DNA of 37,340 nt, taken from the UHGV virus genome UHGV-1403306, one strand, 5' to 3'. Of the stretch, positions 18,404-30,485 are shown piece by piece. Positions within the stretch are counted from its first letter, which is position 1. Every line of letters begins with the position of its first letter. The DNA comes from a virus. Both the position numbers and the translations under genes were made by a program. Under the pieces are notes generated by a model. The model saw only the letters and a list, made by a program, of their open reading frames with translations. It made no database searches and was not told where the DNA came from.

Positions 18404-18844
18404 TTAATTTCCCTCCAATAATTCTGGGTTATCCCATACATTTCCGATAACTTCATATTCTTCGCTGTCAATGAATCTAACAGATGTTAATTTTCCATTT
18501 CTTAGCATTTTGGTGCAGAATGAACCTTTTTCAAATACAACAACGCTATTATTTATATGCGATTCGAAAGGAATGTAATATACTACATCCCCCTCAAAAA
18601 TTTCAACGCCGTTCTTATCTTTCAACCCTGTTGATTGCATGATGACATAAGGAAATTCATCCCAATTAAAAGTTGTATCATAACTTCCTATCTCTATTTC
18701 AGACGTGCCAGGACTGCCTTTAATCTGAAAATCCGTAATTATGGCCATCATGCTATTCGAGTCATCAAACAAAGGTGTAACATTTTCTAGCATTTCTTTC
18801 TCGTAGGTATCCCACGCTCTAAACTTTGGAATCATCTTCTTCAC
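18404..18844 (-). CDS. YopX-family protein
   Basis: 146 aa. FRAWDTYEKEM… and …KDKNGVEIFEGDVV… match the YopX signature. Confidence 0.6.
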   Translation of the reverse strand: MKKMIPKFRAWDTYEKEMLENVTPLFDDSNSMMAIITDFQIKGSPGTSEIEIGSYDTTFNWDEFPYVIMQSTGLKDKNGVEIFEGDVVYYIPFESHINNSVVVFEKGSFCTKMLRNGKLTSVRFIDSEEYEVIGNVWDNPELLEGN

Positions 18845-18857
18845 TCACTTTCTTAAA

Positions 18858-19298
18858 TTACAACATCAAATCCCCAAGAAAAGCTTTTTTCATTTCCTTA
18901 TAGATGGTTAGTTCATTTTCTGCTGTCGCTATTTCATCCGTGATATGATCCATCATCCGAACAAAGGCTTTTTGGGTTTCTCGATTGAATAACTCTATTG
19001 GAAAATTACCAATTTCCTTTTCTTGTATATTGATACCTGTTGCATACTTTGCAATAAATTTGTCTACATTTCTTTGTAGAATTAAATTGAAATACTTAGG
19101 CTCGATGCCATTTTGAGGAATAATCACAACTTCCTTTGTTGGTACTTCCCTAGGATATTCTAGAAAATCTATTTGGCCTTTCGTAGCCGATATTTGAATG
19201 GTTGATGTTCCAGCAGGATAAATGTATCCTGCTTTTGCCCTTCCAAATTCTGCAACATCTTCTAATTTGACACGTTCAAAGTTATCAAAATCAATCAT
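18858..19298 (-). CDS. Type I R-M specificity-subunit-like protein with a single target-recognition domain (half-HsdS)
   Basis: 146 aa. The N-terminus …VKLEDVAEFGRAKAGYIYPAGTSTIQISATKGQ matches the conserved start of HsdS TRDs. Its start overlaps the MTase stop (ATGA). Confidence 0.55.
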   Translation of the reverse strand: MIDFDNFERVKLEDVAEFGRAKAGYIYPAGTSTIQISATKGQIDFLEYPREVPTKEVVIIPQNGIEPKYFNLILQRNVDKFIAKYATGINIQEKEIGNFPIELFNRETQKAFVRMMDHITDEIATAENELTIYKEMKKAFLGDLML

Positions 19299-20611
19299 AA
19301 TAGGCTCAATTGCTCCCCTTCCGTCGGTTCTGCTCTCTTTATTGGTCGTTTTGGTTTTTGACTGTCCTTATACCCAACATGTTCCGAAAAGAATGAAGCA
19401 AACTCTTTTATTTGTCTATCAGCTTCTGGCGTAGTCCCAACTAAATCATTCATCATTTTGGCTAGTTCGATATTATTCTTTGCAATCTCTTGCTCTGTTT
19501 GTTTCATTTCTGCCATTATTTCAGATAGTGGCTTTACAGGTTCTGGTTCAAAAGTATCAACATAACGAGGTATGTTTAGATTAAAGTCATTTTCTTTCAA
19601 TTCTTCGATAGTAACTACACTGCTAAACTTATCAACTGCTTTTCTTGATTGGAACACTTCTAAAATTTTAGCAACATGTTCGTCTTCTAAAACATTCCAA
19701 GCCTTTTCCTTTTTAAATTCCTTGCTGGCATCAATGAATAAAATATCTTTATTCAATCGGTTCTTTTTTAAAACTAGAAGAACCGTCGGAATATCAGTAT
19801 TCATAAATGCTTTTGCAGGTAGTCCAATAACAGCATCTAGCAGATTCTTTTCAATAAGTTTCTTGCGAATCTTTTCTTCTGCAGCACCTCGAAACAAAAC
19901 GCCGTGCGGTAAAATAATAGACATTATGCCATTATCTTCCAATTGGTGTACACCCTGTAGTAGAAATGCGTAATCTGATTTTGATTTAGGAGCTAAGACA
20001 CCATAATCCGAAAAACGCTCTTGCTCTAAATACTCTTTTAATGGATTCCAAGGGAGCGAGTAAGGTGGATTCATGATGACCGTTTCCGATTTATTCGTTG
20101 GTACTTCGTCAACAATTTCAATAGAGCTAAACTCAGTTGATTTTGTTAATTTGTATATTGTTTTAAACTCACGACTTAATGAATCACCATGCAGAACTAC
20201 GGCATTTATATTTCTGATTGCTAAATTAAACAAGAGAAATGGCAATGCACGATCTGAAAACTCTTCACAATGAAACTGTGCATCAGGATTTTCTGCATAT
20301 CGTTTAATTGTTAAACCGCCAGTTCCTGCACAGATGTCTGCATTGGAACGAGTTGCCCCAAGAACTCCACTGGCAACCCGAATGATTCCATCTGGTGTAA
20401 AATCTTGCTTCTTGCCTTTTCGGTCTGAATGTTCCGCTTGAAAATATTCTGTGAACCAATCAAATGATAGGTCTTGTTCTTCTTTTAAAAAGTTGGTAAA
20501 TAGTAGTTCTCGTTCGCTTGGACTACTTAATATTTCAATCAATTTATAGGAAGCATGAAAGCTTTCATCAACACCTAGCAGTTCATTTATTTTTTCTGTT
20601 GTTAGTTTCAT
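19295..20611 (-). CDS. N6-adenine DNA methyltransferase, HsdM-like (motif I DICAGTGG, motif IV NPPY)
   Basis: 438 aa. AdoMet motif DICAGTGGL and catalytic MNPPYS are present. It is translationally coupled to the HsdS-like ORF. No R subunit is in the replicon. Confidence 0.85.
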   Translation of the reverse strand: MKLTTEKINELLGVDESFHASYKLIEILSSPSERELLFTNFLKEEQDLSFDWFTEYFQAEHSDRKGKKQDFTPDGIIRVASGVLGATRSNADICAGTGGLTIKRYAENPDAQFHCEEFSDRALPFLLFNLAIRNINAVVLHGDSLSREFKTIYKLTKSTEFSSIEIVDEVPTNKSETVIMNPPYSLPWNPLKEYLEQERFSDYGVLAPKSKSDYAFLLQGVHQLEDNGIMSIILPHGVLFRGAAEEKIRKKLIEKNLLDAVIGLPAKAFMNTDIPTVLLVLKKNRLNKDILFIDASKEFKKEKAWNVLEDEHVAKILEVFQSRKAVDKFSSVVTIEELKENDFNLNIPRYVDTFEPEPVKPLSEIMAEMKQTEQEIAKNNIELAKMMNDLVGTTPEADRQIKEFASFFSEHVGYKDSQKPKRPIKRAEPTEGEQLSLL

Positions 20612-20663
20612 CGTTTTTAAGGAGCAAAAAGCTTTTTAATGCGGCCGCAAACCTCCGCTCCTT
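20612..20663 (-). promoter_or_regulatory. Conserved hairpin leader of the N6-MTase gene (7-bp IR AAGGAGC/GCTCCTT, 31-nt loop with GCGGCCGC and AAAAAGCTTTTT palindromes)
   Basis: The inverted repeat 20619-20625 / 20657-20663 ends exactly 7 nt from the ATG. A near-identical element precedes the C5-MTase gene. Confidence 0.5.
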
Positions 20664-20664
20664 T

Positions 20665-21408
20665 CTATTTATTTTTCTCTAAAACTTTTTTAAATATGTC
20701 ATCCACTAATTTTTCTGGAATATTTGATCGTTCATTATAGCTTTTGGAAAAATTGCCCCAGGCAATTTCTTGTTTAATAACTTTATTTTTCAATCCCAAA
20801 TGAATATTACTGGCAAATTTCGTAGGCTTCTGTAATGGATAATCATAATTGTTATACTTGGTTAAATTTTTAAATGGTAGTTTAAAATTCAAGACATCTT
20901 CAATATATTCCCAAATTTTACCATTAGCCGGGTTCTCAATAATGAAATATCTGGGTTGGTACTTTTTTATAATTTTTATAGTATTAAAAACCGTTAACTC
21001 TCCATTCACTCTTTTTAAAAATTGTCGTTCATAAACATAATTAGTATCTTCGTAATCTTTTGTGGTTCTTATAGTAAACGGGCTTGGTAATATCTGTGGC
21101 GCAAATAAATTATCTGTTACATCTTCTCTTTTCCAACATGCATTCCCATTTTTCATTGCACTAGCTACTGACCAGCTTTCACATGGTGGGCTTGCAATGA
21201 TTAAATCTGGTTTTGGTAATTTGTCTAAAACTTTGAATAATTTATTATCATTAAACATATAAGAATAGTCCGCTAAATTCAGATGAATAAAATGGTCATT
21301 CTTATTTTCAATATCCAAACCTATGCTGTATATTTCTATATCTTCAAACTTTTGTGCAGAACGTTTATAACATCCGTTCCCACTATCAAATAGTGCCCAT
21401 ACTATCAT
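20665..21408 (-). CDS. Compact DNA (cytosine-5)-methyltransferase-like protein (motif I FDSGNG, PC motif SPPCE, ENV-like IIENP)
   Basis: 247 aa. Motifs I, IV (PCE in place of PCQ) and VI are recognisable in the right order. There is no obvious TRD or C-terminal motifs IX-X. Confidence 0.55.
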   Translation of the reverse strand: MIVWALFDSGNGCYKRSAQKFEDIEIYSIGLDIENKNDHFIHLNLADYSYMFNDNKLFKVLDKLPKPDLIIASPPCESWSVASAMKNGNACWKREDVTDNLFAPQILPSPFTIRTTKDYEDTNYVYERQFLKRVNGELTVFNTIKIIKKYQPRYFIIENPANGKIWEYIEDVLNFKLPFKNLTKYNNYDYPLQKPTKFASNIHLGLKNKVIKQEIAWGNFSKSYNERSNIPEKLVDDIFKKVLEKNK

Positions 21409-21459
21409 AATTTCAAAGGAGTAAAGAATTCTTTGTGGTCGACCAAACCTCCACTCCTT
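21409..21459 (-). promoter_or_regulatory. Conserved hairpin leader of the C5-MTase-like gene (7-bp IR AAGGAGT/ACTCCTT, 31-nt loop with GGTCGACC and AAAGAATTCTTT palindromes)
   Basis: The inverted repeat 21415-21421 / 21453-21459 ends 7 nt from the ATG. Same architecture and same GGAGGTTTG core as the N6-MTase leader. Confidence 0.5.
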
Positions 21460-21464
21460 CCTGA

Positions 21465-21692
21465 TTATTTGATTAATACATAAAATCCATTTTTCTTTGC
21501 AACGTCTCCTCGAATTCCCAAATGGCCTTCCAAATCTTCAAAGGTCCTTTTTGTAATTTTAGAAAGTTGCGTGTCATACCCCAAATTTCTAAGTGTCACG
21601 TACTCATTGGGTGTTAATTGGTCTAAATCTATTGCCACAATTGGCGGAAACCGTTCAGCCGACGGCTTAAATGTCACACTAGTTAATTTCAT
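21465..21692 (-). CDS. Hypothetical protein
   Basis: 75-aa ORF. Confidence 0.3.
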   Translation of the reverse strand: MKLTSVTFKPSAERFPPIVAIDLDQLTPNEYVTLRNLGYDTQLSKITKRTFEDLEGHLGIRGDVAKKNGFYVLIK

Positions 21693-22347: not shown

Positions 22348-23208
22348 CTATTTCCCCTCCATGAACTCTTTTATTTGTCTATCAAGTTCCGCTTGCTCTT
22401 CTGGAGACAATTTTTCCTCTTCTTGTTTTTGTTCATTCACCCAATCTGGCAATTTTTCTTGCCTTACTGGTGGTTTCGAGTAAGTTGTCTGTTGAGTTGG
22501 TATAGATAAATCATATTCATCGTTGTAACGATCATCACGAATCCAACGAAACAACTCTTGGGGATGATACCAGTCGTTTAATTTGATATACTTAAGGTAA
22601 TCTTTATATCCTTTTTTGAACTGATCCAAATCTTCTTCTGACTTAAATTTCTTTAAGAATTGCTCTTTAGCTTTTTTCTTATTGGTTTTCTTCGGATATG
22701 TTTTCCAAACTTTTTCGAATAATTCAGACATGGTTGAGCTCTGCTCAACACTATTCTTTTTATTCTTTGTATTATTCTTTGTATTATTAATTAATGTATT
22801 ATTCTCTGTGAAGTTTTCTTCACCAGGGGTAGTGAAATTTTCTTCACCACCCTCATGAAGATTTTTTCCATAGGTGATGAAATTTTCTTCACTAGGGGTG
22901 TAGAATTCTGTATCAGTTGGAAAAGGCAATATATAAATATGTCTACGATCTACAATTTTGCTATCTGGTTTGTAAAAGACTTGTATCTTTATATATTTTC
23001 GTTTTTCTAATTGCTTCATCCATGATATGATCGTCCGTTTGCTAACGTTGTATAGGCTGGCAAAGTATTGATTTGTTGCCCAACAGTAGCCTCTTTCATT
23101 TGCTAATGCTGTCAGCTCTCCATATAATAGCTTTGCATTCCCATTTAATTGGTTATCGTAGCGGACAATGGCTGGAATGATGGCATAAAAGCCTCTATGT
23201 TCATTCAC
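22348..23208 (-). CDS. Replication initiator / replisome organiser with an N-terminal HTH (HTH_36 / Phage_rep_org_N-like) and internal EENF repeats
   Basis: 286 aa. The N-terminus …LYGELTALANERGYCWATNQYFASLYNVSKRTIISWMKQLEKRKYIKI is a wHTH. A mid-gene nucleotide iteron cluster encodes the EENFTT repeats. Confidence 0.6.
   Translation of the reverse strand: MNEHRGFYAIIPAIVRYDNQLNGNAKLLYGELTALANERGYCWATNQYFASLYNVSKRTIISWMKQLEKRKYIKIQVFYKPDSKIVDRRHIYILPFPTDTEFYTPSEENFITYGKNLHEGGEENFTTPGEENFTENNTLINNTKNNTKNKKNSVEQSSTMSELFEKVWKTYPKKTNKKKAKEQFLKKFKSEEDLDQFKKGYKDYLKYIKLNDWYHPQELFRWIRDDRYNDEYDLSIPTQQTTYSKPPVRQEKLPDWVNEQKQEEEKLSPEEQAELDRQIKEFMEGK
22751..22900. repeat. Candidate origin of replication inside the rep gene: AT-rich TATTATTCTTTG direct repeats plus three ~20-bp iterons (GAAATTTTCTTCACCA-like)
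   Basis: Direct repeats at 22752-22805 (tattctttg x3) and 22810-22829, 22834-22853, 22879-22898 (gaa[ag]ttttcttcac…). Confidence 0.5.
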
Positions 23209-23423
23209 TGGTTATCCTCCTCATCAACAACGACCGTATAGACATATTTATGCCTAAATTCTCCGTTAACGACTTTTTTTATTGTTTGTGTTTCAATAGC
23301 TATCCCTTTTCCATTTCTTGAACCGACATAGACAAATGCTAATAGTTCAAAAAATAGTTTTTGACTCGATGTCAATTCCCTGTATTTTTCAAGTAATTCT
23401 TCTACCAAACTGTTAACCTCCAA
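23205..23423 (-). CDS. Hypothetical protein
   Basis: 72-aa ORF overlapping its neighbours. Confidence 0.3.
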   Translation of the reverse strand: MEVNSLVEELLEKYRELTSSQKLFFELLAFVYVGSRNGKGIAIETQTIKKVVNGEFRHKYVYTVVVDEEDNQ

Positions 23424-24054
23424 TATTCAACTTCTTACGTTCTTCAACGTTTAGTTTTACTGGTTTAATTTGATACTTGTTTAAAAAGTTCTTAGTACCT
23501 ATCTGATGTTCTTCTTGATGATGTTGACGACAACCAGCGTAAAAAATAAATGTTTCGTGATTAATCTTTTGACGATTCCGCCCCATGCCGACTACCTCTA
23601 TATGACAAACATCGGCATGTTTCCCACAAATACAACACTTACGGTATTTAAGGCAGTAATAAAACCATTTGTTATTTTCTAGCAAGTATTGGTATCTCTT
23701 TTCTAGTGGTACATCATTTTTCAAAATGAATTCGATTAAGAAACCGATCCACTCAGTCGCTTCATTCTTGGTAGCTCTACTATGTTCAAAGTAAACACCA
23801 CTCTTAGCTTCGTAGTAGTATTTCAAGACACTTTCAATCCATTTAGGTTCGTCATAGCTCCAACGTGCCACATCGGCTATTAGAACGTGAGAAAGTGCAT
23901 TCTGTTTTTGAGACATCTGTCGATTATCTAAGAATTCAACTTTCGCTAAATTATCATCGTTATTAGCCAGAAGTTCGAGAAAATTTGAATTTATTTCATC
24001 CTCAAATTCGATGGCCAACATATTCCCTTTATGTTTTATGATTTTCCCAATCAT
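23413..24054 (-). CDS. DUF968-like Cys/His-cluster protein (putative HNH-type nuclease associated with the recombination module)
   Basis: 213 aa with …CCICGKHADVCHIEVVGMGRNRQKINH…CRQHHQEEHQ. Located next to the Sak4-like ATPase. Confidence 0.4.
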   Translation of the reverse strand: MIGKIIKHKGNMLAIEFEDEINSNFLELLANNDDNLAKVEFLDNRQMSQKQNALSHVLIADVARWSYDEPKWIESVLKYYYEAKSGVYFEHSRATKNEATEWIGFLIEFILKNDVPLEKRYQYLLENNKWFYYCLKYRKCCICGKHADVCHIEVVGMGRNRQKINHETFIFYAGCRQHHQEEHQIGTKNFLNKYQIKPVKLNVEERKKLNIGG

Positions 24055-24058
24055 TCAA

Positions 24059-25075
24059 TCACTTCTTTTCAAAATCATTTGCAATCGGAGGATTTGCCTC
24101 GTCAAATAATTCTGTTTGTTCTTCATCGAGTTCGTTTTCACTTTGTTGTTCCACAGTAGGAACTTCAATCTTTTCTAACATTTCTTTCATACGCTCAAGA
24201 ACTTTAGTTTTTACGTTTTTTAAAGGTACGTTGTTAATCTTGCTGTGCAACTCTTTAAACATATTTTCATGATTTTCAGATTGTGTAGCAAGTTCTGTAA
24301 TACTACTAATTAATTCATCTTTTAATTTTTCTAAATCTATTCCTTCGCTACTCCATTCATATATTTTTTCGCCTACTTCTTTTGTTATTTTAAAAGGCAT
24401 ATTAAACATATTTGAGTTATCTTTTGTAGCTTCCGCTATGTGGTCCTGATCAATACGTAAAGCGATAGCAAATTCATATTCCAAACTATCTTTTTGATCA
24501 GGTTTCAACCCTAGTTTTACTACTTGTGTTTTACCTTGTTCATTTTTTTCCATGTCGTAGGCTTGCTTACTTCTAGACGTTCCAATCACATACATTGAAT
24601 TTCCTGTTACTAACTTAAGAAATTCTTTCTCTAATGGTTTTACTTTATTCCAAGCCAACATTTGATTTTTAGAGTTGCCTCTCTGATGGTTTTCTACTTG
24701 TTCTAAAATGCCACCTTCACCACTCCAAGCATGCGTTAGAGAATCGACTATAACCACTTCAACCCCAGCTTGTTTGAATAAATTAAAAGCCTGTATATAT
24801 CGCTGTACAGTAAATGGTGCTTCAAAATCAATATGCAAAAATTCCCCTATGTCGACATTTCCAATGGTTGAATCAGCATATAACAACGATCGTTTGTGCT
24901 CAGTGTCAATGACACCTATTTTTTCCCATTGTTCTTGTTCTGATAAGTCTGAATGCATTTTTTCAATAATTCCTTTAGCAATAAACAACGCACTTACTGT
25001 TTTTCCACTACCACTTGCGCCAGTTATCATGATAGGAACTTTTATTTTTTCGCGTTTAGCCTTTTTTATTTCCAT
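24059..25075 (-). CDS. RecA-fold AAA ATPase (AAA_24 / Sak4-like recombination protein)
   Basis: 338 aa. Walker A GASGSGKTV and Walker B VVIVDSLTH. Gp157 then this ATPase is the usual gene order. Confidence 0.7.
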   Translation of the reverse strand: MEIKKAKREKIKVPIMITGASGSGKTVSALFIAKGIIEKMHSDLSEQEQWEKIGVIDTEHKRSLLYADSTIGNVDIGEFLHIDFEAPFTVQRYIQAFNLFKQAGVEVVIVDSLTHAWSGEGGILEQVENHQRGNSKNQMLAWNKVKPLEKEFLKLVTGNSMYVIGTSRSKQAYDMEKNEQGKTQVVKLGLKPDQKDSLEYEFAIALRIDQDHIAEATKDNSNMFNMPFKITKEVGEKIYEWSSEGIDLEKLKDELISSITELATQSENHENMFKELHSKINNVPLKNVKTKVLERMKEMLEKIEVPTVEQQSENELDEEQTELFDEANPPIANDFEKK

Positions 25076-28185: not shown

Positions 28186-28614
28186 ATGCTTTTATCTGAT
28201 GTACCCTATGCTATTGAAGAATTAAAACAGAAATATGGAACCAATGATCCGTTTGAAATAGCCGAGAAAAAAGGAATCATTATTCTCTATGGCTATTTTG
28301 GGAATGAAGTGTATGGGTTTTATAATAAATTCCGTAGACAAAAGTTTATTCATTTAGATGCTGAATTAGATGATAATGAACAAAATTTTGTCTGCGGCCA
28401 TGAGTTATTTCATGCTGTCTTTCATCCAGATGAAAACACGGCAAAAATGACAGCAAACAGTTTTTGCTCGACTTCAAAAATAGAAGCACAAGCAAATTGT
28501 GGTTCTACTTATCTTCGAATTGATGGCACCCATATGAATGAGTTGTATATTCCGACTAAACAAGACATACTAAACTTTTATGGTCTCCCTCCAGAAATGG
28601 AAAGGTACTTATAA
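28186..28614 (+). CDS. ImmA/IrrE-family zinc metallopeptidase (HExxH: CGHELFHAVFH), anti-repressor protease
   Basis: 142 aa with HELFH. Gene order ImmR-like then ImmA then int, as in ICEBs1 and phi105-type modules. Confidence 0.7.
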   Translation: MLLSDVPYAIEELKQKYGTNDPFEIAEKKGIIILYGYFGNEVYGFYNKFRRQKFIHLDAELDDNEQNFVCGHELFHAVFHPDENTAKMTANSFCSTSKIEAQANCGSTYLRIDGTHMNELYIPTKQDILNFYGLPPEMERYL

Positions 28615-29806
28615 TTTTTTGAATGTAGACGAACATGAGTTTTTGAAAGGGGTTTTATACATGGCAATGATAAAACAGTATCAAAAGAAAAACGGGGAGA
28701 AAGCATGGTATTTTAAGACGTACCTTGGAATTGATCCATTAACTGGAAAAAAGAGGTATACAACTAAGAGAGGTTTTCGAACGCAGAAAGAGGCAAAAAT
28801 TGCCCTTGCGAGACTAGAAGTTCTAGCTACAGATAAAGAGTTATTGAAAGAGACTAGTTATACTTTTGCGCAGGTAAAAGATATGTGGATGGAACAATAC
28901 AAACCTACGGTAAGAGAAAGCACCTATTTACGTGTTAAGTTTTTATTTGATAAAAACATTTCAGTTTATTTCGGAAATAAAAAAATCCAAAGCTATAACA
29001 TAGCTTACTGCCAAGAAACTATTAATAAATGGAAAGAGCAATATTCTACCTACAAAGCTTTAAAGAGTTATACATCTGCAGTTTTTGATTATGCGAAAAA
29101 GATGAAGCTTATTAAAGATAATCCCATGAAAGAAGTGACTTTTTCAAAAGGTGATCGAAAACGTAAAAAAGATAAAATAAAGTACTTCGAAAAAGAAGAA
29201 TTACAAAATTTTCTTAAATGCTGCCAAAAAGACAAATTTCCTTTAACTTATCCTTTATTCAGGATTCTAGCTTTTACTGGAATGCGAAAAGGAGAAGCTT
29301 TAGCTTTAACTTGGGATGATGTGGATTTTTTTAATAAAACGATTGAGATTAATAAAACAGTCGTAAGAAATTCAGATAATAAATTAGTCACCACGCCCCC
29401 TAAAACAGATACATCTAACCGAAAAATTTCACTGGATGATGAAACGCTTAATACTTTGAGGGATTGGCAAACTCAACAAAAAAGATATTTACTTATACAT
29501 GGTCAACATGTTAAAACAAAGGAACAAATAATTTTTTCTTCTAAAAATAATAACTACATCGATATAACCCGACCAAATACCGTTTTGTCTCGTATCTGTA
29601 AAGAATATGATTTTAACGACATTACAATACACGGATTTCGGCATACACATTGTAGTTTATTATTTGAAGCTGGCTTATCTGTTAAAGAAGTACAGGAAAG
29701 ACTAGGACATTCAGATATTCACACAACAATGAATATTTACACACATGTAACTAAAAAACAAAAAGAAAGGTCTGCCGATAAATTTGCAGCCTATTTAAAT
29801 TTTTGA
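28580..29806 (+). CDS. int: Tyrosine integrase (site-specific recombinase); probable start at 28661
   Basis: The C-terminal catalytic region …HGFRHTHCSLLFEAGLSVKEVQERLGHSDIHTTMNIYTHV carries the R-H-R-Y residues. RBS AAAGGGG lies 9 nt before the ATG at 28661 (MAMIKQYQKKNGEKAWYFK). Confidence 0.9.
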   Translation: MVSLQKWKGTYNFLNVDEHEFLKGVLYMAMIKQYQKKNGEKAWYFKTYLGIDPLTGKKRYTTKRGFRTQKEAKIALARLEVLATDKELLKETSYTFAQVKDMWMEQYKPTVRESTYLRVKFLFDKNISVYFGNKKIQSYNIAYCQETINKWKEQYSTYKALKSYTSAVFDYAKKMKLIKDNPMKEVTFSKGDRKRKKDKIKYFEKEELQNFLKCCQKDKFPLTYPLFRILAFTGMRKGEALALTWDDVDFFNKTIEINKTVVRNSDNKLVTTPPKTDTSNRKISLDDETLNTLRDWQTQQKRYLLIHGQHVKTKEQIIFSSKNNNYIDITRPNTVLSRICKEYDFNDITIHGFRHTHCSLLFEAGLSVKEVQERLGHSDIHTTMNIYTHVTKKQKERSADKFAAYLNF

Positions 29807-30030: not shown

Positions 30031-30113
30031 GTTTTATTAAAATAATACTTTTCTTTATAAAATCTTTATTAAGTGATAGAATTGACTTAAATTAATAAGC
30101 AGGAGTGTATGTT

Positions 30114-30485
30114 ATGGATTGGAAAGAAGTTGGAAAAAAAGCGTTAGATGTTAGTAAAAAGGCTACTGAGAAAAGTATTGATTCGTTCCAAGAATGGAAA
30201 AATGATCCAGAAAGAATCAAAAAAGCTGAAGAAAGAAAAAAAACAATCGATAAGAAACAAGATAAAAAAGCACCCATGTTTCATAACGGGGTTCACTGTC
30301 CTAAATGTCGTAGTATGAATGTAGAATTTATGCAAAATAACCGTAAAAGTTTTTCTGTAGGTAAAGCTGCAGGTGGTGCAATTTTAACAGGTGGCGTGGG
30401 TACATTGGCTGGATTCGCTGGAAAAAAAGGGAAAAATCAATGGCACTGCAAAAATTGTGGAAACACATTTACTTCAAAAAAATAG
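30114..30485 (+). CDS. Zinc-ribbon protein with a glycine-zipper segment (moron gene)
   Basis: RBS AGGAG lies 9 nt before the ATG at 30114. Paired CxxC (CPKCRS…CKNCGN) flank SVGKAAGGAILTGGVGTLAGFAGKKGK. Plus strand, between attP and the tRNA. Confidence 0.5.
   Translation: MDWKEVGKKALDVSKKATEKSIDSFQEWKNDPERIKKAEERKKTIDKKQDKKAPMFHNGVHCPKCRSMNVEFMQNNRKSFSVGKAAGGAILTGGVGTLAGFAGKKGKNQWHCKNCGNTFTSKK

Follow-up and report, generated by a model that had tools for sequence, protein, structure and literature searches.

A nested-palindrome leader ahead of swappable DNA methyltransferase genes in an Enterococcus faecalis phage: a possible portable module for translational coupling and cassette exchange

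In the virus genome UHGV-1403306, analysed here as one stretch of 37,340 nucleotides (the window), two DNA methyltransferase (MTase) genes lie one behind the other on the minus strand, and each of them is preceded by a copy of the same short element, in which the arms of an inverted repeat enclose two palindromes. What does this element do, and why is it found in front of two different MTase genes? An earlier reading made from the sequence alone (the sequence-only reading) regarded it as a shared regulatory cassette, acting either by sequestering a Shine-Dalgarno (SD) sequence or as a methylation-sensitive operator whose palindromes are the enzymes' own targets. We find that the element belongs to a widespread family that is absent from Rfam and from the papers searched and has an unusual nested-palindrome design; in the sequences compared, the family marks where exchangeable genes for DNA modification begin in the phages of Gram-positive bacteria of the gut. 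The most likely reading, with a probability of about 40%, is that the element is a portable RNA leader: it would mask the ribosome-binding region and couple the translation of the MTase to that of the upstream gene, the same stretch also being the point of crossover between cassettes. The two elements and the two genes behind them are as follows.

21416 to 21459, minus strand: element A, 44 nt from arm to arm, scored by the covariance model at 55.4 bits.
20665 to 21408, minus strand: first cassette gene, a short C5-MTase-like protein of 247 aa (PHROG 2882 'DNA methyltransferase', 7e-128).
20619 to 20663, minus strand: element B, 45 nt from arm to arm, scored by the covariance model at 66 bits.
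19295 to 20611, minus strand: second cassette gene, an N6 adenine MTase of the type I HsdM kind, 438 aa (PF02384, 1.4e-66), with the C-terminus ...GEQLSLL.

Element A consists, in order, of AAGGAGT (21459-21453), GGAGG, TT, TGGTCGACCA (21445-21436), C, AAAGAATTCTTT (21434-21423) and ACTCCTT (21422-21416), with the 3' arm followed by the 7 nt TGAAATT and then by the ATG at 21408-21406; element B consists of AAGGAGC (20663-20657), GGAGG, TT, TGCGGCCGCA (20649-20640), TT, AAAAAGCTTTTT (20637-20626) and GCTCCTT (20625-20619), with the 3' arm followed by the 7 nt AAAAACG and then by the ATG at 20611-20609. Each element occupies the entire gap from the upstream stop codon to the ATG of its MTase gene, the stop codon TAG of the 247-aa gene (20665-20667) being located 1 nt ahead of element B. 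The sequence-only reading had described a perfect 7-bp inverted repeat, a distal arm 7 nt from the ATG and the lack of a conventional SD sequence, and these features hold in both leaders: the repeat is AAGGAGT/ACTCCTT in A and AAGGAGC/GCTCCTT in B, the distance is 7 nt in each, and no SD sequence is present at -4 to -14 for either MTase ATG, though most neighbouring genes in the window have one. The loop of 31 nt that it gave for both leaders is correct for B and becomes 30 nt for A. The palindromes that it placed in the loop are present but are longer than was claimed, being 10 bp (TG...CA) and 12 bp (AAA...TTT), with the 12-bp palindrome abutting the 3' arm and with a linker of 1-2 nt between the two. 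The GC-rich palindromes are indeed unusual in a window with a GC content of 34.6%, GCGGCCGC occurring once versus ~0 expected and GGTCGACC once versus ~0.1 expected. AAGCTT has 22 sites in the window versus ~19 expected and GAATTC has 12 versus ~16 expected, neither being rare, and palindromes of at least 10 bp are not enriched (57 versus 53 expected). That the two MTase genes carry the same leader is confirmed by the searches: the 16-mer AAGGAGYGGAGGTTTG occurs exactly twice in the window, and the covariance model, when run over the whole window with the filters off, gives just two copies, at 66 and 55 bits, with the opposite-strand reading of the same two sites at 18.7 and 16.8 bits and with the next best match at 9 bits (E>3).

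The check that the sequence-only reading had named, a search for the element in other phage genomes, shows that it is found widely ahead of MTase genes. Our sample of the family comprises, among the matches listed, about 376 copies from 335 phage, prophage and metagenome loci, with 103 unique sequences. The pattern scans, which placed no constraint on the interior of the element and required no palindromy, gave at least 116 viral contigs and 104 metagenome contigs, and among species-representative genomes the element is present in Enterococcus species besides E. faecalis and in Eremococcus. In the megablast comparison with phiFL1, phiFL2, phiFL3, EFC-1 and phiEf11, the match stops within the ~55 bp that lead from AAGGAG to the ATG, or does not extend beyond them, each time at the annotated start of an MTase gene, and this ~55-bp unit is 96-100% conserved in phages having unrelated flanks; in phage AE4_2 the element has a DNA polymerase gene on one side and an adenine MTase gene on the other. 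In the E. faecalis phages, among the matches listed, the downstream gene is always a DNA MTase, from at least eight unrelated families. The E. faecalis downstream proteins fall into seven clusters: HsdM-like, a 154-aa S-adenosylmethionine (SAM) MTase, the 247-aa C5-like protein, full C5, N4/N6, a 252-aa N6 MTase and D12 Dam. A ninth family, PF05869 Dam, is found behind the element in Enterococcus sp. AZ126, and a few further species of Enterococcus have one or two small ORFs (open reading frames) of unknown kind interposed between the element and the MTase gene.

With relaxed patterns a much larger family is obtained, in gut-type viral contigs, with the consensus of a stop codon, (A/G)AAGGAGT, (A/G)AGAGG, TTTG, palindrome 1, N1-4, AAA-N6-TTT, ACTCC, ~8 nt and ATG. 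Two cultured Clostridia phages carry the element, phiCs5676-1 ahead of an MTase gene and Villandry ahead of a PAPS reductase gene, and a comparison of the metagenomic consensus with the cultured-phage collection gave no match. Among the matches listed, the genes downstream of the wider-family copies are PAPS-reductase-like (53), multi-zinc-ribbon protein (36) and SNF2-MTase fusion (15) genes, with further copies ahead of C5 MTases, short C5-like proteins and Dam MTases. Because copies precede PAPS-reductase-like and zinc-ribbon genes, the element is not strictly MTase-specific; the majority of the genes behind it are nevertheless DNA-modification genes. The sequence-only reading had held that an occurrence before unrelated genes would speak against its regulatory view, and such an occurrence is limited to these distant relatives. 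A search of Rfam 15 gave no relevant match at E<=10 in the region of the window and none at E<=1 in four related loci; nor does any paper found in the literature searched describe the element. Note also a divergent copy in a relative (locus L234, 4160-4204), in which both palindromes are GC-rich: AAGGAGCC TGGAGC GGCGGCCGCC ATAA CGGGATCCCG GCTCCTT. Since palindrome 2 of this copy is GC-rich, the AAA..TTT frame is not obligatory.

The family is built from a conserved GGAG(Y)/(R)CTCC inverted repeat, a purine SD-like tract and two adjacent zero-spacer palindromes, whose sequences vary while their symmetry is kept. The 376 copies, with 103 unique elements, include 32 distinct perfect versions of palindrome 1, with cores including GTCGAC, CGGCCG, TGGCCA, GCGCGC, ACCGGT, TCCGGA, GTGCAC and CCCGGG, and 19 of palindrome 2, with cores including GAATTC, AAGCTT, GAGCTC, GACGTC, GCCGGC, GCTAGC, GATATC, TCATGA, CAGCTG, CTGCAG and AGCGCT, and the outer bases are near-invariant, TG..CA for palindrome 1 and AAA..TTT for palindrome 2. 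The 12-mer is perfect in 71 of 87 unique matches, versus 1 in 64 by chance. Pairs were counted from the parsed sequences and from a model-fitted alignment, because the MAFFT alignment misplaced hairpin 1; in the seed alignment of the covariance model, four rows were altered by one base each for equal length. For 55 distinct sequences in the model-fitted alignment, 93.6% of the paired cells are indeed paired versus 85.4% in shuffles, the covariation score is 0.267 versus 0.100 in shuffles (none of 500 shuffles reaching it), and the pairing falls to 60% or less once the partners are slid. Pair 3 of hairpin 1 is seen as CG, UA, GC and AU, and pair 4 of hairpin 2 as GC, AU, CG and UA, with zero unpaired cells in either. 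The deviations from perfect palindromy are of one kind: all eight imperfect variants of palindrome 2 deviate by T.G, never by A.C, on the sense strand. This mildly favours a structure of the sense-strand nucleic acid, although a bias of mutation from C to T could yield it too.

The position of the element relative to the neighbouring genes is also fixed. All copies have the sense orientation and span the whole intergenic gap. The upstream stop codon lies 1-13 nt ahead of the element in 70 of 76 unique contexts, and these contexts have 51 distinct upstream C-terminal 12-mers, so that the upstream genes must be many and different. At the other end, the CTC of the 3' arm ends 9-11 nt ahead of the ATG in 127 of 158 unique variants; the pyrimidine arm therefore occupies the position where an SD sequence usually lies. 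In terms of the message, the CUCCUU arm is at -8 to -14, the SD-like arm is 45-52 nt ahead of the ATG, and the ATG itself is outside the helix. Translational control by way of the AAGGAG/CTCCTT helix is plausible: the 3' arm stands exactly where an SD sequence would be and keeps a tight distance from the ATG. The SD-like arm is ~50 nt away, and the invariant core of the helix leaves covariation neutral on it. The classical form of such a hairpin was rejected, as both the regulated gene's own SD and its start codon are outside the helix.

Based on this arrangement, we infer that RNA rather than DNA is the active form and that its effect is translational coupling or attenuation. The coupling reading draws on the fixed placement between a stop codon and an SD-less ATG, on the anti-SD-like arm at the SD position, on the strong SD tract near the terminating ribosome and on the stability of the fold being particular to the sense strand. 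The leader would be a structured intercistronic element that marks, at the 5' end, a slot of temperate Firmicutes phages into which genes for DNA modification can be plugged. In the mRNA, the SD-like 5' arm (AAGGAG, then GGAGG) would pair with the CUCCUU arm at -8 to -14, with two short local hairpins compacting the 30-nt interior, and the folded leader would bar the independent entry of the 30S subunit. A ribosome ending the upstream ORF would stop 1-13 nt short of the helix and melt it, the SD tract thus exposed would then hold the terminating ribosome, and the SD-less ATG of the MTase would be read solely at a fixed, low ratio to the upstream gene, whichever gene is plugged in. The predicted folds are stronger on the sense RNA (A: -19.6 kcal/mol, z -2.4; B: -15.9 kcal/mol, z -1.4) than on the antisense RNA, which reaches -11 kcal/mol; the single-stranded DNA folds are at -6 to -8 kcal/mol (z -0.1 to -1.4) on both strands, and a single-stranded DNA hairpin as the active form was rejected for this weakness on either strand.

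Several points weigh against the coupling leader. The predicted sense fold is a long hairpin in which AAGGAGYGGAGG is paired via G.U pairs with UUCUUUACUCCUU, the three-way junction with both local hairpins is 6-9 kcal/mol less stable than this long hairpin, palindrome 2 alone is predicted to be too weak to fold as RNA, and the extra helix of the long hairpin has no covariation. The four pairs GGAG:CUCC at the core of the outer helix never or almost never vary, and covariation is therefore uninformative on this helix; its innermost pair is U-A in 38 cases, C-G in 5, U.G in 3, G-C in 1 and unpaired in 7. Whatever the fold, ~50 nt separate the SD-like arm from the ATG, and the arm cannot be the MTase's own SD. 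Both palindromes stay perfect right across the centre, a property that an RNA hairpin could do without, and this points to a constraint at the DNA level or to a palindrome-copying mutation. A TTG lies 6-8 nt after AAGGAG in most copies; the ends of the resulting mini-ORF are inconsistent, and the TTG is missing in a few variants. Over 158 unique variants this mini-ORF ends at 4-5 codons in 39, extends into the ATG in 22, passes the ATG out of frame in 55 and gives an in-frame fusion in 9, and it is absent in 3-5 variants (counts over 158 and 39 unique variants). A leader-peptide attenuator of the erm/cat type, or a bicistronic coupler, starting from the TTG was therefore rejected: the start is well placed, the position of the stop is unconserved and the TTG is sometimes missing. 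Also rejected was a two-state RNA switch, in which the purine tract and the 5' half of palindrome 2 compete for the pyrimidine strand; it is predicted thermodynamically, and the native combinations are no more complementary than permuted ones. No single model fits both the thermodynamics and the conserved centre-perfect palindromes.

At the DNA level, the portable leader would be, as a near-identical ~55-bp unit, the site at which MTase cassettes are exchanged by homologous recombination, and it is the near-identity of this unit between phages that would make it the place of such swapping. Both flanks are shuffled at the element. Among 94 unique contexts, 3429 pairs share the element, of which 2366 have no other similarity, with an island of homology from -15 to +58, 444 are similar on the upstream side alone and 404 on the downstream side alone, with the homology beginning at -15 to +5 and ending at +52 to +60 relative to the element. 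Of its two neighbouring genes, the element is linked more tightly to the downstream one. Arrays in which two cassettes follow each other (element-MTase-element-MTase, with none after the last gene) are common; no array in the sample exceeds two genes, and in 38 of 38 arrays the palindromes of one element are different from those of the other. The suggestion that the MTase genes were acquired as cassettes with a common 5' module is thus strongly supported by at least eight MTase families, by the isolated homology island (2366/3429) and by the tandem arrays. The types of palindrome 1 and palindrome 2 are found in every combination. For a fixed internal crossover point, by which palindrome 1 would go with the upstream gene and palindrome 2 with the downstream gene, the linkage does not discriminate, as lineage correlation is present throughout. 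The 3' end of the MTase slot is likewise conserved:

18810 to 18857, minus strand: conserved 3' junction of the MTase slot, TTTAAGAAAGTGAGTGAAGAAGATGATTCCAAAGTTTAGAGCGTGGGA, holding the ribosome-binding site (RBS) and the start of the YopX gene (PF09643, ATG at 18835-18833).

This junction, AGAAAG(T/C)GAGTGAAGAAGATGATTCCAAA at the YopX start, is located behind several unrelated MTases in other phages. In some phages a remnant of the C-terminal coding sequence of another MTase (...CAGCTGTCATTATTTTAG) lies between the resident MTase gene and the 3' junction, and this remnant, from its sequence, would be the footprint of a cassette replacement.

The alternative that survives best, although we regard it as unlikely, is that the element is in the first place a DNA recombination site, either an integron-like crossover site, one to each cassette, where a site- or structure-specific enzyme would exchange circular or linear cassettes among phages and prophages, or a pure homology handle for RecT/Erf-type recombinases, with any effect on expression being secondary. 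It accounts for the homology island with both flanks independently shuffled, for the tandem arrays with no element after the last gene and for the conserved 3' slot junction; the occurrence of all palindrome-1/palindrome-2 combinations implies an exchange within the element, the difference of the palindromes in 38/38 arrays is what is expected if identical repeats are deleted, and the palindromes are perfect including their centres. It does not need, however, the fixed spacing to the ATG and the constant sense orientation, there is no dedicated recombinase in the window, just the ordinary phage integrase at 28580-29806, and no attC-type core sites are present. Moreover, the single-stranded DNA folds given above are weak, and the homology breakpoints lie at the edges of the element rather than at one internal point. 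Somewhat more doubtful still is the idea that the two functions are one, the element being an undescribed and widespread class of Firmicutes-phage cis-element, a plug-and-play adaptor for anti-restriction genes that is both an expression module and a structure-recognised recombination site. If this were true, the MTase slot would be the phage counterpart of an integron, and the changing yet perfect palindromes would be selected to stop recombination between tandem copies or as determinants of specificity.

Two further alternatives are improbable, and to about the same degree. According to the first, the element is a signal for RNA processing or stability, the ~20-bp imperfect hairpin being a site at which RNase III or RNase Y cuts the MTase cistron off from the message upstream, or the unusually long SD-like tract AGAAAGGAG...GGAGG being a ribosome-binding stabiliser of the STAB-SD type that shields the mRNA downstream. 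The sense hairpin is predicted at -14 to -20 kcal/mol in every variant tested, the tract has a 9-nt match to the 3' tail of 16S rRNA far from a usable start codon, and the position is intercistronic; but no covariation is seen in the additional helix of the long hairpin, and two conserved palindromes, a fixed distance to the ATG and a restriction to DNA-modification genes are left unexplained. According to the second, the palindromes have no function and ride on an ordinary conserved ribosome-binding or junction sequence, diversifying by template-switch mutation and not by selection. Template switching (quasipalindrome mutagenesis) yields centre-perfect palindromes, which would then be the expected end state, the deviations at the centres are all C-to-T (e.g. 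CCGG to CTGG and GCGC to GTGC), and palindromes of 10-12 bp are common in this AT-rich genome. Against this, two palindromes stand at fixed positions with fixed outer bases in ~100 unique variants from Enterococcus and Clostridia phages, no decayed or non-palindromic versions are seen beyond single T.G changes, and the spacing is strictly conserved.

Least probable is the operator proposed in the sequence-only reading, in which the adjacent MTase, or a restriction enzyme, would recognise the palindromes, and their methylation or occupation would autoregulate transcription of the MTase gene: self-regulating MTases do exist in restriction-modification systems, the cores (GTCGAC, GCGGCCGC, GAATTC, AAGCTT) are perfect, spacer-free and of 6-8 bp as for type II enzymes, and the palindromic centres are kept as symmetric protein-DNA recognition would require, but the palindrome type does not track the MTase family, and own-target-site autoregulation was therefore rejected, the identical element with GTCGAC and GAATTC preceding at least seven MTase families (C5, N6, N4/N6, HsdM-like and small SAM MTases among them) and the HsdM-like and 247-aa families each standing behind two or three palindrome types. 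In addition, the enzyme behind element B is of the type I HsdM/HsdS kind, and targets of type I MTases are bipartite and asymmetric, a short palindrome being no target for such an enzyme; relatives of the element precede non-MTase genes, and the palindrome sites are not otherwise avoided in the genome. No sigma-70-like promoter was found at, or overlapping, either element, which also speaks against a methylation-sensitive operator. The terminator scan was empty at both elements, whose tails UGAAAUU and AAAAACG have no U-run, and an identity as intrinsic terminator or sigma-70 promoter was rejected.

The window is a temperate Enterococcus faecalis siphovirus or prophage: its region of interest is 97.5% identical to Enterococcus phage 1_EfsPF36, and the window is kin to the phiFL and phiEf11 phages (megablast). 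The minus strand carries most of the genes, and from high to low coordinates the order is integrase, replication module, two small ORFs, MTase slot, YopX, DUF1642 and terminase. The remaining features are as follows.

28580 to 29806, plus strand: integrase, a standard phage integrase with an arm-binding domain, ~8 kb from the MTase slot and on the opposite strand.
22348 to 25075: replication module (HTH_36 initiator, AAA_24, HNHc_6).
21465 to 21692, minus strand: upstream ORF of 75 aa (PHROG 5677, unknown function), with its stop codon TAA at 21465-21467, 5 nt ahead of element A.
18858 to 19298, minus strand: half-size HsdS-like specificity subunit of 146 aa (PF01420, 2e-4, slightly under the family cut-off), in the second cassette.

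In the 247-aa protein the match to PF00145 is limited to residues 50-86, around the PPCxxxS motif. The protein is far shorter than ordinary C5 MTases, in the arrays found the next gene downstream of it is always an HsdM-like one, and the protein may perhaps be no stand-alone cytosine MTase. The start of the HsdS-like ORF overlaps the stop of the HsdM-like gene (ATGA), and among the annotated ORFs of the window no HsdR-like gene was noted; from its sequence, the HsdM-like and half-size HsdS-like pair (18858-20611) looks like an orphan type I methylase in a phage. It is also noted that several unrelated DNA-modification enzymes behind the element (e.g. in loci L118, L032 and L317) carry a QLSLF-type pentapeptide at one terminus, examples being the HsdM-like ...GEQLSLL (19295-19320, minus strand), the 252-aa N6 MTase ...EPEQLSLF, D12 Dam ...NEQINLF and, at the N-terminus, the PAPS-reductase-like MRQLSLFE. 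The motif by which bacterial proteins bind the beta sliding clamp is QL[SD]LF, and the likeness suggests that these may be clamp-tethered modification enzymes. Elsewhere in the window, at 22750-22900, there are three copies of a ~22-nt direct repeat, (A/G)CCCCT(A/G)GTGAAGAAAA(T/C)TTCA on the minus strand, spaced 24 and 45 nt, with an adjoining 12-nt tandem repeat AATAATACAAAG, all inside the ORF 22348-23208 (HTH_36, replication-initiator-like); to judge from their arrangement, they look like candidate origin iterons within the replication gene. Beside the integrase and lysogeny region, an open frame on the plus strand (30099-30485) encodes a zinc-ribbon-like sequence with two CxxC pairs; it has no relation to the MTase slot.

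Orphan MTases carried by phages are a main escape route from host restriction, and how they are acquired and exchanged is poorly understood. In Enterococcus phages a discrete module of 45-55 bp fronts at least nine families of MTase, and in gut Clostridia phages it fronts further kinds of DNA-modification gene. It can serve as a sequence tag to locate anti-restriction slots in genomes and metagenomes and as a defined substrate for probing the swapping of cassettes, and it is a candidate for a context-independent translation adaptor from Gram-positive phages. Its nested, centre-perfect and compensating palindromes fit neither a plain RNA-hairpin nor a plain operator model.

Finally, we compare the element with known systems. 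Like the MTase operators and C-boxes of restriction-modification systems, it is palindromic DNA directly upstream of an MTase gene; unlike them, it has palindromes that change independently of the enzyme, it comes with neither a controller-protein gene nor a promoter-like site, and its MTases are orphans without an endonuclease. With integron attC sites, whose cores are RYYYAAC...GTTRRRY, it shares conserved 7-nt inverted ends, a variable palindromic interior, one site per promoterless gene, tandem arrays and a functional bias of the genes; it differs in that its ends are AAGGAGY...RCTCCTT with no RYYYAAC/GTTRRRY cores, in that it apparently has no conserved extrahelical bases (the model being gapless, the variants showing just an occasional 1-nt insertion), and in that it lies upstream of the gene, with its distance to the ATG fixed and with arrays of at most two genes in the sample. 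The window, in which no search was aimed at them, showed no integron-type integrase, attI or Pc.

In the com-mom system of phage Mu, the start of a DNA-modification gene is masked by a hairpin and is opened by the zinc-finger protein Com. The element resembles it as a structured leader directly ahead of a phage DNA-modification gene and, only in some relatives, by an upstream Cys4 zinc-ribbon ORF; the leader sequences are dissimilar, and the genes upstream of the element are mostly unrelated to one another. In a subset of relatives (L001 2383-2496 in the phiFL1A gp23 region, L230, L234, L207 and L200) this ORF of 46-58 aa, e.g. MTCIKCKGQMIVWEKDRFGHSKATSCPLCNK..., lies directly upstream. The small zinc ribbons of these relatives gave no match to the Com family in Pfam, and no Cys4 ORF is present near the MTase slot at 18.8-21.7 kb of the window. 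A Com-like zinc-finger activator was rejected on these grounds. STAB-SD or polypurine 5' stabilisers, known from Bacillus cryIIIA and phage SP82, are alike in having a very strong SD-like purine tract that does not serve a start codon, in Firmicutes or their phages; unlike in them, the tract of the element is predicted to be paired with an anti-SD arm in cis, and it is apparently inside an operon rather than near the 5' end of a transcript. Mosaic phage genomes carry conserved module-boundary (linker) sequences, and the element is, like these, a short conserved stretch at a gene boundary that joins unrelated flanks and acts as a crossover point, differing from them in its compensating internal structure, its translation-related fixed spacing and its specific class of downstream genes.

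By analogy, the element would work most like an intercistronic coupling hairpin that occludes the RBS, as known for the coat-replicase and lysis genes of MS2 and for ribosomal-protein operons, yet it fails their defining feature, as the gene's own SD is not in the helix. Shared with them would be a helix adjacent to the start that bars free entry of the ribosome; in both, the upstream ORF ends within a ribosome footprint of the helix, and the downstream start lacks an accessible SD. What sets the element apart is that its SD-like strand is ~50 nt upstream and an anti-SD-like strand stands at the SD position, and that it is a discrete module, portable between unrelated genes, which carries in addition two zero-spacer palindromes.

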